NCBI GenBank assembly: GCA_905478465.1
Contig: CAJQIN010000002.1
Coordinates: 88,312 to 152,311 of the forward strand
Length of the DNA: 64,000 bases
Direction of reading: 5' to 3'
Source: Minisyncoccota bacterium
GTDB lineage: Bacteria > Patescibacteriota > Minisyncoccia > Phycocordibacterales > CAJQIN01
The notes under the pieces were generated by a model that had not been told where the DNA came from, ran no database searches, and worked only from the letters and a program-made list of their open reading frames with translations. Shown in pieces: positions 8,623-48,547 of this stretch (the stretch's first letter is position 1; each line of letters opens with the position of its first letter). The position numbers and the translations under genes were made by a program.

Positions 8623-9300
8623 CTATAGTTTTTTCCTGGAAGAAGCAACTAACATACTCTGAAAAAACTTCATCCTCCACAAAAACCTCACTCCTGACAG
8701 CTCTACGACCAAACAACCCTTATAATTAGGTCTTTTTTTAACCTTTAACCCGCTCGGCTTATAGATGCTTTTCTGAAACCTTGAAGAGGGAATATGTGTC
8801 AATTCTGACCAATATGTCTCCCATTCTTCATGAGCATATGGTGCATGTAGGTACAATCGACACTTCATATTTTCTTCATTTACATACATATATCTCTTTA
8901 TCCACAGAACCATAAAACATATCATGTCTGGATCTGAATTAATAAAACGAAAATTACTCGATCTTTTTGCCCCCTCAGCCCAATACAGAGCTACTCCTGC
9001 AATAAACATAGGGTCATCTTTATACTTATCAAACTCTTTTTGTGCTTCTGTAAACTCCAACTGCTCTCGAATTAAACGATTCTGCCTATTAGCACTCGCC
9101 GCTTTTATTCTACCCCGTGAGATATTTGAATCTGTTCTTTTTTTCAACACATCCTTTTCATCTTCAGTAAGAGGCAGATCTTTCAACCAATTAGAAAGAG
9201 TACTTTTAGAAACATCCACATGTTCCAAAATCTCTTTATAACTAGCGCCTTTTCTACGCATTTCAATAGATTTTTGTTTTTCTTGAACCTTGCTTTTCAT
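8623..9300 (-). CDS. helix-turn-helix DNA-binding protein, function unknown
   Basis: N-terminal HTH (GASYKEILEHVDVSKSTLSNWLK), similar to transposase/resolvase-type HTHs. The rest is not recognisable. Lies next to the tRNA cluster. Confidence 0.5.
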   Translation of the reverse strand: MKSKVQEKQKSIEMRRKGASYKEILEHVDVSKSTLSNWLKDLPLTEDEKDVLKKRTDSNISRGRIKAASANRQNRLIREQLEFTEAQKEFDKYKDDPMFIAGVALYWAEGAKRSSNFRFINSDPDMICFMVLWIKRYMYVNEENMKCRLYLHAPYAHEEWETYWSELTHIPSSRFQKSIYKPSGLKVKKRPNYKGCLVVELSGVRFLWRMKFFQSMLVASSRKKL

Positions 9301-43076: not shown

Positions 43077-43454
43077 TTAGCAACTTGTTTTGTAAATTTG
43101 CCTCCAGTTTAAAGTTCTGAACTCGTCCAGTAAGGGGAGCCAGTTTGGACGGTCCGAGTAATTCTCGGGCCGTTCTGCATTCTGAGTTTTCATTTTTACG
43201 GCTAAAGCAAAGGGTTTATTGTATGAATAACTTACTTTTTTATTCTCCAAGAAGTCATCCCGGGTCTTCCAGCTACTTAAATGACTTGGATGCAATTTAT
43301 ATTTTTTAGCAAACGCTTTTGCTGTAGAAATCTTAATCTCATCTCTTTCTTTTGATGTCATCACAGACCATTCAATAAACGCTTTAAAAACATCTGTCAT
43401 TTTAGGACCACATTTCTTTCGGCTTTTTTGGTTACCCCCCAGCAGAATTAACAT
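43077..43454 (-). CDS. hypothetical protein with transposase-type HTH-like segment (possible mobile-element remnant)
   Basis: KISTAKAFAKKYKLHPSHLSSWK resembles the IS3-family OrfA HTH (…stlykW.k). Marks the boundary of the higher-GC island. Confidence 0.3.
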   Translation of the reverse strand: MLILLGGNQKSRKKCGPKMTDVFKAFIEWSVMTSKERDEIKISTAKAFAKKYKLHPSHLSSWKTRDDFLENKKVSYSYNKPFALAVKMKTQNAERPENYSDRPNWLPLLDEFRTLNWRQIYKTSC

Positions 43455-43882: not shown

Positions 43883-44542
43883 TTGTTACTGAGACCTATT
43901 AATGTAATGCCTTGTTGGGCAGAAAATGCTAAAATGGCCTTACTTATGTCTACATTACATTGGTACCAAACAAAAACACTTCCATCCAAAAGTTACACCT
44001 GTGGTCACTGCGGTAATCAACTTGCGTCTAATGTTGGCTTCCAGGGAAGTGCCCAGGAGGATGGTGGTGGGCGGCCTGATCGTTACATTTATATTTGTCA
44101 TCACTGCTTTAAGCCAACCTACTTCTCTCCAAAAGCAGAGCAGGTCCCCGGCTCTAGACCAGGAGAAGATATTTCTGGCATAGATGAGGTCGGAGTTGAA
44201 ACTTTATATAAAGAAGCGAGAGACGCATATTCAAAGAACGCCTTTACCGCGACAGTTCTCTCTTGTAGAAAATTACTTATGCATATAGCGGTTTCAAAGG
44301 GGGCAAAACCTAATCAAAAGTTCATAGTTTATGTTAAATATCTTTCAGATAATAATTTTGTTCCGCCGGGAGCCAAAGATTGGGTTGATCATATTAGAGA
44401 AAAAGGTAATGAAGCAAATCATGAGATTGTGGTCATGACCAAAGAGGAAGCCGATGATTTATTGGCATTTGTAAGCATGCTTCTAAAGTTAGTATACGAG
44501 TTCCCAAGTAAGATGAAAAAAAAGGATCAACCTGAGAATTAA
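43883..44542 (+). CDS. Zn-ribbon plus DUF4145-like domain protein
   Basis: N-terminal CxxC...CxxC (YTCGHCGN, YICHHCFKP). The C-terminal helical domain with TATVLSCRKLLMHIA resembles the DUF4145 CRxxLE core seen in R-M/Abi contexts. Confidence 0.4.
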   Translation: MLLRPINVMPCWAENAKMALLMSTLHWYQTKTLPSKSYTCGHCGNQLASNVGFQGSAQEDGGGRPDRYIYICHHCFKPTYFSPKAEQVPGSRPGEDISGIDEVGVETLYKEARDAYSKNAFTATVLSCRKLLMHIAVSKGAKPNQKFIVYVKYLSDNNFVPPGAKDWVDHIREKGNEANHEIVVMTKEEADDLLAFVSMLLKLVYEFPSKMKKKDQPEN

Positions 44543-44552
44543 GGCAAATAAC

Positions 44553-44900
44553 ATGTCAGACATTAATAAACTTATCAAAAGAATAGCTGACTTTAGGGAC
44601 GCAAGGGATTGGAAACAATTCCATAACCCCAAGGATTGTGCGATTTCTCTGTCTCTTGAAGCATCGGAAGTGCTTGAACATTTTCAGTGGAAGAGCTCTG
44701 AAGAAATAAAAGAATATGTAGAAAGCAACAAGGGAGAGATCTCCGAGGAACTTGCTGATGTTTTGTATTGGGTTCTTTTAATGTCTAACGATCTGGATGT
44801 AGATATCGCTGATGCTTTTGAAAAGAAGATGAAGAAGAATGAAGATAAATACCCAATAGAAAAAGCAAAAGGTCGTCACGCTAAATACACAGAATTATGA
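44553..44900 (+). CDS. MazG-like nucleoside triphosphate pyrophosphohydrolase (small all-alpha NTP-PPase)
   Basis: 115 aa with the EExxE metal-binding helix (LEASEVLEHF...ELADVLYW) typical of MazG/HisE-like NTP-PPases. Confidence 0.65.
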   Translation: MSDINKLIKRIADFRDARDWKQFHNPKDCAISLSLEASEVLEHFQWKSSEEIKEYVESNKGEISEELADVLYWVLLMSNDLDVDIADAFEKKMKKNEDKYPIEKAKGRHAKYTEL

Positions 44901-45895
44901 GTAATGTATGGCGATTTACAGGCCCACCTGAAAACTGGATCACAGCTTTTGGAATAAACAACTGGGCACTAAACGAAAACAATAAATCACTCTGGGAGAA
45001 TAAGATAAAACCAGGAGACACGGTAATTTTCCATTCAACAAAGAAGTCAGAGTTCTCAAACAAAACTCAATCAGTTGTAATCGGTTTTGGTTATGTAGGA
45101 AAACCTTTGTATGAGAAGGATGAGCTTTGGTGGCTTCAAGAAGTTAGAGATAATAAAAACTACTGGCCATACGTGGTTCCACTAAAAGAAGTTTATTTAT
45201 TTTCAGATGTTGAAGATATAGATTTCGATACTCCAATACAAGATAAGAGTGAAGAACAGATTACTAGCGAAATAGATACCCTAATTAAGAAAGGCGTTCT
45301 CATCTCTTCATTAAACGAACAGGCACAAAAACAAGACCCATCAGTACCCCAATTCCCAGTCAATGGTTCTGCTTCAGGTATTAATATAATTTATGAAGAT
45401 CTAATCCTTGAACAGGACCGGGACTTTATAGCCAAATCAGAAACTCAAGACACGGAAATACTTGAAAAGAAGCTTGCTGAAAGTTATGACGAAAAATTAG
45501 CATATCTCAGTAAAGAAGAAGTCCTTGATCAAGCTAAAACCTTTGATAACAGTGCTGATGAAGCATATATCGTTAAGTACGGTAAGAAGTGTGTACGCAA
45601 AGAAAACCAAGCCCAGAAGCGTCGTGTGGCCCATATAGAGGACTACACATGTCAGGTTTGCGGTTTTAAGTCTGAATATACTAGAACTAATGGAAAGAAA
45701 GGTTGGATAATTGACATAGACCATATTAAAGAAAAATCTGAAGGTGGTAACGAAAACATGGATAACCTTTGGGCCTTATGTCCTAATTGTCATGCAAAGA
45801 AAACAAGAGGAGTAATCACTGTAGATCTTGAAGCTAAGAAAGTTTACGAAGATAACAAAGAGGTCGAAATTAGAGATAATCATTTGTTCACATGA
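44897..45895 (+). CDS. PUA-like (EVE/ASCH-type) N-terminal domain fused to a C-terminal HNH endonuclease
   Basis: HNH motif CQVCGF...DIDHIKEKSEGGNENMDNLWALCPNCHAKK. The N-terminal 110 aa has the W/GD/beta-barrel pattern of PUA-like modified-base readers. Its start overlaps the MazG-like stop as ATGA. Confidence 0.6.
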   Translation: MSNVWRFTGPPENWITAFGINNWALNENNKSLWENKIKPGDTVIFHSTKKSEFSNKTQSVVIGFGYVGKPLYEKDELWWLQEVRDNKNYWPYVVPLKEVYLFSDVEDIDFDTPIQDKSEEQITSEIDTLIKKGVLISSLNEQAQKQDPSVPQFPVNGSASGINIIYEDLILEQDRDFIAKSETQDTEILEKKLAESYDEKLAYLSKEEVLDQAKTFDNSADEAYIVKYGKKCVRKENQAQKRRVAHIEDYTCQVCGFKSEYTRTNGKKGWIIDIDHIKEKSEGGNENMDNLWALCPNCHAKKTRGVITVDLEAKKVYEDNKEVEIRDNHLFT

Positions 45896-47190
45896 AAACG
45901 GAACTAACTAACAAAGCAGTTAATAGGTTGTATAAATACAGAGCAAACATCGATTTGGAACCACAGTTTCAAAGACAAAAAGTCTGGTCTACTAAAAAAC
46001 AGCAGTATTTTATAGATACTATTTTAAAAAAATGGGGCGTGCCTAAAATGTATTTCCTTTTTCTTAGTAAAAAAGGTGCCGCTACAAACTTGTATGCTTG
46101 TATTGATGGAAAACAAAGGTTAACTGCAATATATAATTTTTTAGGAGATGAAATAGTTTTAAATAAAGAATATAGCGGCATACATGGTGGTAAAAAATAC
46201 AGTGAGTTACCTGAAAAGATACAGGACCAATTTGATGCGTACGAAATAGATATAGAAGAAGTTTCAGAAGCAACAAACGAAGAAATATCGGAATTGTTCA
46301 AAAGATTACAAGGGGGAACCCCGCTTAATTCAGGAGAAAAGTTAATGGCTACCGGTGGTGATCTTTGCAAAAAAATAAAAACTTTTTCTGCACATAAGTT
46401 TCTTAAGGAAAAAATACTATTGTCAGATACTCGATACACATATTTCACCATATGTGCCCAGTTAGCATACTTGGAAACTCACGGGATATCTAACCTGAGC
46501 TTTACTCAATTAGAAAGCTTTCTAAAACATAATAAAAATAATGCTACAGCTGGCTTTGAGCTTAAAAGTAAGTTGAAGAAAATTAAAGAGGTCCTAGATA
46601 CTCTTAAGGTGATTTTTGAAGAAGCTCCAACCTATTTTAAAAACAGGGCTTCTGTTGTATCTACTTACCTTTTAGTATCTGAGCTTATAGATAAAGGAAG
46701 TATTAATGATAAGCATGAAGAAATCAAAGCTTTTTTCGACAGGTTTATGAAAGATTTAGAAGAAGAAATCGAGAAGGGTTCGCAAGCCACAGATGCACAG
46801 CTCATAAGTTATCAATCTTCTGTAACCCAAGGTGCTGACAAACAAAAAAGTATAAAGACAAGACACGAGATACTTATCGATAGATTAATAAAGTTTGATC
46901 CGTCCTTCCACACCTTTTTTAATAAGAACAAAGAGCCAGCGTTGCAGTTCAATGAACTCTACGAAAAGTTTGGGCTTAAATTAGGAAATAGTACAAAAAT
47001 TGATGAGTGGATTTTTGCTCAGAAACCTCGTCTTAAGCGTATTACTTGCGGAAGAAATAGCAATGAAGAAAGTTTACCTACACACATTAGGCATTGTATC
47101 CATCATAAGAAGCATGGAACCTATACAAACTCTGAGCTGAGGAAAGCCATAAAATTACTAGATGAGCTGAAATCAAAACTACCCAAATAA
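45892..47190 (+). CDS. DUF262 (ParB-like nuclease, GmrSD N-terminal domain) protein
   Basis: (Q/E)FQRQxVW and CIDGKQRLTAI, the DGQQR motif of DUF262. The C-terminal half has His-rich HxxxHxxH that may act as a nuclease. Its start overlaps the HNH gene stop as ATGA. Confidence 0.65.
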   Translation: MKTELTNKAVNRLYKYRANIDLEPQFQRQKVWSTKKQQYFIDTILKKWGVPKMYFLFLSKKGAATNLYACIDGKQRLTAIYNFLGDEIVLNKEYSGIHGGKKYSELPEKIQDQFDAYEIDIEEVSEATNEEISELFKRLQGGTPLNSGEKLMATGGDLCKKIKTFSAHKFLKEKILLSDTRYTYFTICAQLAYLETHGISNLSFTQLESFLKHNKNNATAGFELKSKLKKIKEVLDTLKVIFEEAPTYFKNRASVVSTYLLVSELIDKGSINDKHEEIKAFFDRFMKDLEEEIEKGSQATDAQLISYQSSVTQGADKQKSIKTRHEILIDRLIKFDPSFHTFFNKNKEPALQFNELYEKFGLKLGNSTKIDEWIFAQKPRLKRITCGRNSNEESLPTHIRHCIHHKKHGTYTNSELRKAIKLLDELKSKLPK

Positions 47191-47286: not shown

Positions 47287-48048
47287 ATGTCAGCAATTGC
47301 AAAACTAAACAGAGGGAAAGAACATTTTGCGCGTTTGCGGCAAGTTATTGATGAATATCATGCCTCTACACCCTTCAGTGGAGTGTGTGAGGAAGAGAAA
47401 GAAACGGGTGACCTTGTGTACCGTGTAAAAATAATGAAACCTGTTCCGTCTGAAGAATTAGGACTACTTGTTGGTGACCTCATTCACAATCTACATTCCG
47501 CACTCGACTTGAGAGTTTCTGAGTTGGTTGTGGCAAATGGGAATAAGCCCACAAGAGAACATGCTTTTCCTTTTAGCAGGACCGCCCTAGAAATCCAGAG
47601 CGTCGCTGTTCGATGTTTGGTGGGAGTTTCGCCAGCACACACTCAACTCATTATTGGACTAAATTCCTATCAAGGCGGTAATGACTTACTTTGGGAACTT
47701 CACTATTTAGATATCCTTGATAAGCATCGTCAGTTAATTATCGCTGGCAGTGCCCAACAATCTGTAATAATTGACCCATCAGCGATGCTTAGAAAAATGC
47801 AACCGGAATGGAACATTCCTGAAATACCAGTCGCAATTCGGCCTGCCGAACGAGATTTTCCACTAGTAGATGGCACTGAGCTTTTCCGTGTTAAAAAAGC
47901 GGCCAGAACTGAGGGTGTGGAAGAAAAGGTTGGTTTTCCCTTTGAGATTGCTTACAGTGACGGAAATAATACATATGGTGAAGCGCTTTTACCTAAAATG
48001 GAAGCGATGGTGACTGAGGTTGAGAGAGTACTTACTCAGTTACAGTAA
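47287..48048 (+). CDS. hypothetical protein (island cargo)
   Basis: 253-aa ORF with higher GC than the genome background. No recognised domain. Confidence 0.4.
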   Translation: MSAIAKLNRGKEHFARLRQVIDEYHASTPFSGVCEEEKETGDLVYRVKIMKPVPSEELGLLVGDLIHNLHSALDLRVSELVVANGNKPTREHAFPFSRTALEIQSVAVRCLVGVSPAHTQLIIGLNSYQGGNDLLWELHYLDILDKHRQLIIAGSAQQSVIIDPSAMLRKMQPEWNIPEIPVAIRPAERDFPLVDGTELFRVKKAARTEGVEEKVGFPFEIAYSDGNNTYGEALLPKMEAMVTEVERVLTQLQ

Positions 48049-48139: not shown

Positions 48140-48547
48140 TTATTTTTGCTTTTCTAAATATTCCTGAATCAATTCTATATCTCTCAAATCCTTCTCTCTC
48201 CCTAATTGAGTTTTTGCATTTATCAACATCTCTAAACTCATAAAAGGTATTCCTTCAACATAATTTGCGAGAGGTAGTGCTTCATCAAGCGAATAATTTT
48301 CTTTCATAAAATCTAAAGTTTGCTTAGCTCCAGAAATACCTTGGGGATGTTCTAGTGTGGTTGTATATTTATGGTGACGTTTCCAACCTTCTTCTTTTTC
48401 TAATTTTTCAAACAGTATGGGCGAAACTAGGATATCTATATCACCTGCTTCGCGAATACCTAAAACATCTAGAATTGCACTTCCACAAACCATAAATTCT
48501 CCTTCTGGTAAATTTAATTCTTTAACTCTGGAAATATAATCTGACAT
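48140..48547 (-). CDS. minimal nucleotidyltransferase-fold protein
   Basis: GSAILDVLGIREAGDIDILV matches the GS...[DE]xD pol-beta NTase signature. Confidence 0.4.
   Translation of the reverse strand: MSDYISRVKELNLPEGEFMVCGSAILDVLGIREAGDIDILVSPILFEKLEKEEGWKRHHKYTTTLEHPQGISGAKQTLDFMKENYSLDEALPLANYVEGIPFMSLEMLINAKTQLGREKDLRDIELIQEYLEKQK

Follow-up and report, generated by a model that had tools for sequence, protein, structure and literature searches.

We analysed a stretch of 64,000 nucleotides from a Minisyncoccota bacterium (contig CAJQIN010000002.1 of assembly GCA_905478465.1, positions 88,312 to 152,311 of the forward strand), which is referred to below as the window. It codes for a nuclease in which an EVE-type PUA-like module is fused to an HNH domain, and this gene forms a predicted co-transcribed pair with a MazG-like gene directly upstream, whose product resembles the pyrophosphatase DCTPP1. 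We propose, with a probability of about 0.58, that the protein is a two-domain type IV modification-dependent endonuclease (EVE reader plus HNH) and that it is coupled to a MazG enzyme which cleaves C5-modified deoxycytidine triphosphate (dCTP). The nuclease is a divergent branch of the known EVE-HNH type IV enzymes, centred on bacteria of the candidate phyla radiation (CPR). The part that may be new is the conserved coupling to MazG, together with a pattern in which a MazG leader gene is followed by a variable effector gene. The two genes and the three parts of the nuclease are listed here, with protein lengths in amino acids (aa).

44553..44900, + strand: MazG-like gene for a DCTPP1-type all-alpha NTP pyrophosphatase, 115 aa (Pfam MazG-like, E 4.3e-19)
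44897..45895, + strand: EVE-HNH nuclease gene, open reading frame (ORF) with ATG start, 332 aa, stop codon at 45893-45895
44897..45421, + strand: EVE-type PUA-like reader module, residues 1-175 (from profiles, Foldseek and the boundary in the relative P0074)
45422..45592, + strand: helical inter-domain linker, residues 176-232 (from secondary structure and confidence of the AlphaFold2 model)
45593..45892, + strand: HNH (beta-beta-alpha-metal) nuclease domain, residues 233-332 (Pfam HNH; core at nucleotides 45650-45808)

The nuclease is a conserved fusion of an EVE-type module and an HNH domain

The nuclease ORF is real and conserved. About 115 homologues exist, and it is thus not a chance ORF; some 70 of them are full length, with 40-91% identity. 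Sixteen contigs from several samples code for the identical 332-residue protein, with the same gene arrangement. Some sources label the homologues 'McrA'.

An initial annotation, made from the sequence alone, had recognised a complete HNH zinc-finger nuclease at the C-terminus, and this is confirmed by Pfam HNH (PF01844), which matches residues 252-304 with an E-value of 7.7e-11 (42.4 bits, cut-off 21.4). When 42 relatives were aligned, C252, C255, C295, C298, H276, N290 and H299 showed no variation, and D275 was almost invariant. The cysteine pairs C252/C255 and C295/C298 are assigned to a Cys4 zinc site, while D275-H276, N290 and H299 are predicted to be catalytic. When the family profile was compared to the PDB, the HNH region matched EcoKMcrA (6ghc, 3.1e-11), ScoMcrA (5zmm, 1.5e-10) and TagI (6ghs, 5.2e-5). 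The best PADLOC matches of the nuclease are type IV mREase (methyl-directed restriction) models (2.7e-7 and 2.9e-5).

The N-terminus has an EVE-type PUA-like fold. The Pfam EVE family (PF01878) remains below threshold when only the single sequence is used (E 0.011, 16.1 bits against a gathering cut-off of 23), a result which speaks against the assignment and leaves the Pfam score insufficient by itself. The fold is settled by profiles, NCBIfam, a relative, structure and domain architectures taken together. The full family profile matches MJECL36 (2p5d, 1.5e-5) and PH1033 (1wmm, 3.6e-3) in the PDB, and a profile of residues 1-185 finds the same two proteins (1.3e-4 and 7.8e-3) and no other credible match. 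The NCBIfam model PRK00809 (146 residues, 'hypothetical protein') aligns to residues 12-103 with 4.8e-7, far below its 139-bit cut-off. The relative P0100, with 32% identity over its full length, passes the Pfam EVE threshold with 25.8 bits and matches MJECL36 across the whole domain.

The AlphaFold2 model of the nuclease, built from the 42-sequence alignment, has a predicted local distance difference test (pLDDT) of 91.6 and a predicted template modelling score of 0.84. Its best PDB match in Foldseek is again MJECL36 (E 2.8e-6, template modelling (TM) score 0.80 on the target), and VcaM4I (6yex) is matched over both domains (E 3.5e-6). Further matches are PH1033, the founding EVE structure PSPTO5229, THYN1 bound to DNA with 5-methylcytosine (5mC), and YTH domains; the matched PDB entries also include 2hd9, 2eve and 5j3e. 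The comparison of the predicted structure with EVE and YTH folds thus bears out the reader proposed initially, and none of these best matches belongs to an unrelated fold. A search of viral folds in BFVD yielded nothing beyond weak matches to single domains, and no phage protein was analogous over the full length.

The reader had been taken to comprise about 110 residues, and in this respect the prediction has to be revised. The Foldseek alignment to 2p5d spans 174 columns, gaps included, and P0074 shares only residues 1-174 with the window nuclease, so that the module has a length of about 175 residues. A beta-barrel core (approximately residues 1-105) is followed by a helical insertion and closing strands. 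Given this length, the acidic stretch at about residues 105-125, which had been regarded as a linker behind the reader, is part of the module and does not act as a linker. This part is taken by a helical segment at about residues 176-232, in which residues 224-229 are of low confidence or disordered according to pLDDT. Conserved positions of the module include T8, G9, E12, N13, W23, W33, D41, H46, W78, W79, E82 and W90, and the motif F153-P154-x-N156-G157-S158 is conserved as well.

HNH domains are common among homing endonucleases, and EVE and YTH domains were initially seen as RNA binders (PMC6765204), with YTH structures among the fold matches reported above. These points would suit a nuclease that reads modified RNA (for example, bases in tRNA or rRNA), or else an HNH endonuclease of the selfish, homing type. 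We consider both highly improbable. The gene is not associated with an intron, an intein or a mobile element, and the protein is conserved over its full length, including the sensor domain, across phyla. The gene is set among other genes of defence type (DUF4145/PD-T7-4-like and DUF262/GmrSD_N), and its HNH region is nearest to the restriction enzymes McrA, ScoMcrA and TagI.

The module recurs in type IV restriction architectures

A search with the N-terminal profile over 1.84 billion representatives returned 298 proteins with the module, and the domain architecture was determined for a sample of 42 module-bearing proteins of other lengths. Nearly half of these (20 of 42) carry a McrB-type AAA_5 domain and 7 of the 42 carry MrcB_N. 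The module is also found with HNH, HNH_2, Mrr_cat, NOV_C, an inactive REase domain or HEPN. Fusions to McrB-type AAA+, Mrr, NOV_C, SRA-HNH and HEPN form the pattern that a sensor of modified bases should show in type IV restriction, where EVE specificity domains are combined with motors and nucleases (PMC7641849). The modification-dependent type IV architecture which the initial annotation had suggested is supported by these fusions, by the EVE-type structural matches, by VcaM4I and by P0100. EVE-McrB fusions (Bell et al., PMC7641849, PMC11090510) use the same reader module family; there, a GTP-driven motor acts with a separate McrC nuclease, whereas the module in the window is fused straight to the nuclease.

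Two further architectures were observed. P0074 is a metagenomic protein of 474 aa in which the module (residues 1-174, 51% identity) is followed by SRA and HNH_2, so that two different modified-base readers are found within one enzyme. A sizeable group of proteins of about 365-373 aa (P0246-P0258 and similar) consists of the reader module and about 190 additional residues, which may represent an uncharacterised effector domain; P0246 matches no Pfam family.

The nuclease gene is paired with a MazG-like gene

In the window, the TGA stop codon of the MazG gene and the ATG start codon of the nuclease gene share the sequence ATGA (44897-44900), and the nuclease gene is probably translationally coupled to the MazG gene. 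Loci of nuclease relatives were collected by look-up of the encoding contigs, by scanning a single genome for each species and by a metagenome scan, the last of which returned mostly HNH-only relatives and few new full-length loci. A MazG-like gene is located immediately upstream of the nuclease gene in 16 of 17 non-redundant loci. This holds for 10 of 11 loci of the main clade and for all six loci of a second clade, of which P0100 is a relative and whose proteins have about 323 residues and are 29-36% identical to the query over most of its length. The distance between the two genes is usually -4 bp and typically in the range of -4 to +3 bp, while the genes that flank the pair differ at each locus. 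Among the hosts are Candidatus Peribacteria, which provide the closest genome (68% identity), Saccharibacteria and other Patescibacteria, and the pair is also present in metagenome-assembled genomes (MAGs) of an Acidobacteriaceae member and of Luteibacter. No adjacent MazG gene was found beside the HNH-only relatives of Bacillota and Bacteroidota, which have other N-terminal regions. For an HNH-only relative from Paceibacterota (L038), a MazG gene occurs about 4 kb away on the opposite strand.

Some loci show irregular versions of the pair. In the Acidobacteriaceae MAG (L008, 6001-9025), the EVE-HNH gene is broken just past the first CxxC of its HNH domain. About 2 kb of sequence with a 601-aa ORF intervene, and the remaining HNH domain picks up at 8807-9025. 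Either the gene is disrupted or the break stems from the assembly. Longer versions of 449-486 aa are found in the Luteibacter MAG (L010, 5569-6918) and on two uncharacterised metagenome contigs (L087, 3560-5020, and P0062). These have about 120-150 extra N-terminal residues which match no Pfam family, and the MazG gene ends 8-14 bp upstream. In L097 (3150-3883), the MazG gene is frameshifted and the nuclease has lost its middle part, and both appear degraded. This suggests that the MazG-nuclease pair decays as a unit.

In the open-access literature, we found no description of a pairing of MazG with modification-dependent restriction, including among papers on MazG with DUF2075, NOV_C or Patescibacteria, and no paper that contains "nucleotide pyrophosphohydrolase" together with "modification-dependent restriction". 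The papers on VcaM4I, on the EVE-HNH screen and on the EVE catalogue (PMC7897488, PMC6765204, PMC7641849) mention neither MazG nor a pyrophosphatase.

The MazG-like protein has a putative cytosine-type pocket

Among PDB entries, the closest relatives of the MazG protein are 4qgp (2.1e-24) and mouse RS21-C6/DCTPP1 (1.4e-17). DCTPP1 cleaves 5-methyl-dCTP as well as other dCTPs with a modification at C5, and prevents their entry into DNA (PMC13291643, PMC4491611). It has 170 aa, whereas the window MazG is a bacterial protein of 115 aa that is encoded in an operon with nucleases and for which the substrates are predicted. We assigned its residues by mapping the RS21-C6/DCTPP1 alignment onto the residue roles given in PMC13291643. 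The metal ligands of the ExxE...ExxD motif are E36, E39, E66 and D69, equivalent to E63, E66, E95 and D98 of RS21-C6. The cytosine pocket of DCTPP1 consists of a base sandwich by Trp47 and Trp73, with His38 and His51 as selectivity filter. The sandwich is kept as W20 and W46, and Phe41 (F14), Phe50 (F23), His51 (H24), Tyr129 (Y100) and Asp98 (D69) are kept as well. Changes affect Ile101 (Tyr72) and Tyr102 (Trp73), in addition to His38, which is considered below. The putative cytosine-type pocket hints at C5-modified cytosines as the target of the system.

Proposed mode of action

We envisage the following course of events. The EVE module of about 175 residues would read a modified base in DNA, which is probably flipped into an aromatic pocket if VcaM4I is taken as a model. 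Reading of the base would license the zinc-stabilised HNH domain to cut the modified, and hence foreign, DNA. The MazG enzyme would hydrolyse C5-modified dCTP (5-methyl- or 5-hydroxymethyl-dCTP) to the monophosphate. Phages would be deprived of modified precursors in this way, and salvaged modified nucleotides would be kept from the host chromosome, so that self-cutting by the nuclease would be avoided. We infer base reading and licensing of the HNH domain as the most likely part of this scheme, and consider the removal of modified dCTP by MazG to be less certain. Bacteria of the CPR are generally held to depend on nucleotide salvage and, if so, it would matter to them that the chromosome is guarded from salvaged nucleotides.

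If the MazG partner is functional, it would tie the sanitising or depletion of the nucleotide pool to modification-dependent restriction, and it would explain how salvage-reliant bacteria can afford a nuclease against modified DNA. It would also define a widespread family of cassettes, with a leader and a variable effector, in bacteria with poorly known immunity. Enzymes of the EVE-HNH type would be of use as epigenetic reagents if the specificity proves to be new.

A number of observations weigh against this proposal, and several of them concern VcaM4I. That enzyme (6yex) is absent from the HMM matches at E<=10 for the full, the N-terminal and the P0100 profile, and has an identity of only 12-13% in the structural alignment. 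Base flipping is a tentative analogy to VcaM4I, where P24, W82, Y130 and Q128 form pocket and wedge for the flipped 5mC or 5-hydroxymethylcytosine (5hmC). The DNA-binding face of VcaM4I is positively charged, whereas the window module is not basic and is acidic overall, with a net charge of -10 (family mean -3.5). On the side of MazG, the selectivity residue His38 of DCTPP1 is replaced by Ile11, and one locus (L007, the sole exception) has the nuclease without a MazG gene. The family sizes are also very different, with more than 6,797 MazG-family proteins at E<=1e-10 compared to about 115 nuclease relatives. Finally, in six of six loci that were fetched from MazG homologues (within L166-L184), MazG precedes genes other than EVE-HNH. 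The role of MazG is thus a general one which is not specific for modified cytosine, and a function in housekeeping is possible.

MazG precedes several other nucleic-acid enzymes

At each of these six MazG-side loci, the next gene follows at -4 to +3 bp and codes for a different nucleic-acid enzyme. One follower is a NOV_C protein, and here the MazG is 87% identical to that of the window. Others are SLFN-g3/DUF2075 helicase-Peptidase_S24 fusions, behind which either a NERD protein or a protein of about 232 aa is encoded. RadC together with a helicase is also found, as is an unknown protein together with a PIN_12 protein. Several of the followers match PADLOC models (Nhi, AbiO, PDC-S41, PD-T4-1, PDC-S36 and TmtA). 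MazG is thus a leader gene that is conserved while its followers are interchangeable, the EVE-HNH nuclease being one of several. The loci resemble a family of cassettes in which the leader is constant and the effector varies.

It could be argued that the nuclease is a stand-alone type IV enzyme, that MazG is an unrelated housekeeping sanitiser of CPR bacteria, and that its downstream end is merely a favoured slot for defence genes. The MazG family is huge, its named members are mostly from Patescibacteria, and many members are 70-80% identical across CPR lineages, as a housekeeping enzyme would show. MazG identity does not track with the type of partner, since the NOV_C-adjacent MazG is closer to that of the window than the compared MazG proteins from EVE-HNH loci, which have 38-75% identity. 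The nuclease without MazG in L007 also fits, and the characterised EVE-HNH enzymes act as single proteins (PMC6765204). However, the narrow spacing, often with ATGA, recurs with several unrelated partners and so indicates translational coupling and not insertion. The genes upstream of MazG vary by locus, so that there is no fixed chromosomal site, and the pair also occurs outside the CPR, in the Acidobacteriaceae and Luteibacter MAGs. A shared accessory module and a housekeeping gene with a favoured downstream slot both fit the MazG data. Because MazG is tightly coupled to unrelated partners while the upstream genes are variable, we favour a functional link between MazG and its partner, though not strongly, and consider the unlinked housekeeping enzyme to be rather unlikely.

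As a tentative extension, MazG might be the leader of previously undescribed two-gene defence cassettes of the CPR in which the second gene can be swapped (EVE-HNH, Nhi/AbiO-like helicase-S24, NOV_C nuclease, or a PIN-containing pair). In the window, it would cooperate with the EVE-HNH nuclease, either by destroying phage-made modified deoxynucleoside triphosphates and keeping salvaged ones out of the host chromosome, or by making a modified deoxynucleoside monophosphate (dNMP) which is sensed by EVE. In both cases, a nucleotide-pool arm would be coupled to type IV restriction. We regard this extension as possible but doubtful.

Comparison to characterised systems

The overall organisation of the nuclease is that of the VcaM4I/TspA15I/CmeDI group: an N-terminal EVE domain, a helical linker and a C-terminal HNH domain, with a total of about 300-330 residues. 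TspA15I, VcaM4I and CmeDI cut DNA with 5mC or 5hmC and restrict T4gt (PMC6765204, PMC7897488). There are also differences. The relative orientation of the domains in the model is not that of VcaM4I (TM 0.33-0.36, root-mean-square deviation 17-18 A), and the EVE module of the window, with its helical insertion, is closer to the archaeal UPF0310 proteins. Unlike the VcaM4I group as described, the window nuclease family is found predominantly in CPR bacteria, and a MazG-like gene is located upstream.

The UPF0310 proteins MJECL36 and PH1033 (PF01878) are the closest relatives of residues 1-175 in both sequence and structure, and they share the motifs N-W, W-G/A and G-D with the window module. They are stand-alone proteins of about 145 residues with no known function, whereas the window module is fused to a nuclease. 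EcoKMcrA, ScoMcrA and TagI, which are modification- or phosphorothioate-dependent restriction enzymes, are similar from the linker onwards and into the HNH domain. Their sensors are of other types (the McrA N-terminal domain, SBD plus SRA, and a TagI-specific domain, respectively), and none of these is matched by residues 1-175. In particular, no McrA-type N-terminal 5mC-binding domain was found, as only profile positions 195-302 align to 6ghc while the N-terminus matches EVE.

A PUA-like domain may also act without reading DNA. In PUA-Cal-HAD systems, it is reported to sense m6-dAMP and to switch on an effector, and PUA-HNH fusions as well as rare systems with PUA, MazG-like and HAD proteins have been noted (bioRxiv 10.64898/2026.01.15.699771). 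By comparison, the EVE module of the window nuclease might sense a free modified nucleotide and release an autoinhibited, non-specific HNH nuclease, which would lead to abortive infection, with MazG making or removing the ligand. The HNH domain of VcaM4I is indeed autoinhibited by its EVE domain and linker (PMC7897488), dNMPs are the products of MazG, and the acidic character of the window module would be in line with this. On the other hand, the most frequent fusion partners of the module are McrB-type AAA+ motors and MrcB_N, both of which have DNA as their target, and VcaM4I, the best structural analogue, binds DNA. Neither Pfam nor NCBIfam detected a HAD phosphatase in the cassette. In the PUA-Cal-HAD variants, MazG takes the place of the effector and depends on a HAD partner, and PUA binds a mononucleotide, so that they differ from the pair of MazG and EVE-HNH. 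We therefore consider nucleotide sensing to be improbable and retain the reading of modified DNA as the preferred function of the EVE module.

Precedents for MazG-family enzymes in conflict operons exist in mazEFG of E. coli and in the His-Me 'Group 23', which occurs beside MazG (PMC5714182). An assignment of the window nuclease to Group 23 was rejected, as that group has no Pfam entry while the window protein is a canonical member of PF01844.

Neighbouring genes

The additional genes around the pair are listed here.

43077-43454, - strand: ORF, 125 aa, no Pfam match
43883..44542, + strand: DUF4145 gene with a weak PD-T7-4-like match (Pfam DUF4145, E 8.2e-11; PADLOC PD-T7-4, E 7.7e-6)
45892..47190, + strand: DUF262/GmrSD_N gene, 432 aa (Pfam GmrSD_N, E 5.2e-16; PADLOC NsnA, E 2.1e-27)
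47287..48048, + strand: ORF, 253 aa, no Pfam, NCBIfam or PADLOC match
48140-48547, - strand: ORF, 135 aa, no Pfam match

The genes for the DUF4145 protein, MazG, the nuclease, the DUF262/GmrSD_N protein and the 253-aa protein form a tightly packed block on the + strand. The DUF4145 gene opens this block and ends 10 bp ahead of the MazG gene, while the stop codon of the nuclease gene and the start of the DUF262 gene overlap by 4 bp. None of the cassette or flanking genes matches a methyltransferase family, and the PCQxFS motif of C5-methyltransferases is absent from all frames of at least 120 aa in the 64-kb window, which is in line with the proposed type IV enzyme. A scan for promoters and terminators was not informative, with fewer sites than were obtained from shuffled sequence. 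A genetic code with UGA as a sense codon was rejected, since long housekeeping ORFs are intact under translation table 11.

The DUF262 gene was not found beside nuclease relatives from other organisms and is present only in the copies from the same organism; a weak DUF262 match occurs about 1.3 kb downstream of an HNH-only relative (L014). GmrSD combines a DUF262 NTPase with a DUF1524 His-Me nuclease domain, whereas the gene in the window lacks the nuclease half: only GmrSD_N (residues 21-153) was matched in the 432-aa protein, and neither DUF1524 nor a C-terminal nuclease domain was detected with Pfam and NCBIfam. The gene is NsnA-like according to PADLOC and has no NsnB or NsnC partners. A functional partnership with the nuclease as a split GmrSD-like enzyme was rejected as a conserved feature, given the absence of the gene beside relatives in other organisms. 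It may serve in defence independently of the nuclease, or it may be a partner that is peculiar to this locus.

The DUF4145 gene was likewise not found beside nuclease relatives in the related loci that were examined. Its protein has an N-terminal CxxC...CxxC pattern and is zinc-ribbon-like in this region. The listed TTG start codon is probably too far upstream, and ATG codons are available at 43908 and 43934.

The block is flanked by dnaA-dnaN on one side and by a gene for a class A penicillin-binding protein on the other, which places it on a bacterial chromosome, beside the replication origin region. The cassette and three flanking ORFs (253, 125 and 135 aa) represent a small variable island in this region, which extends from dnaN to the PBP1-type gene.

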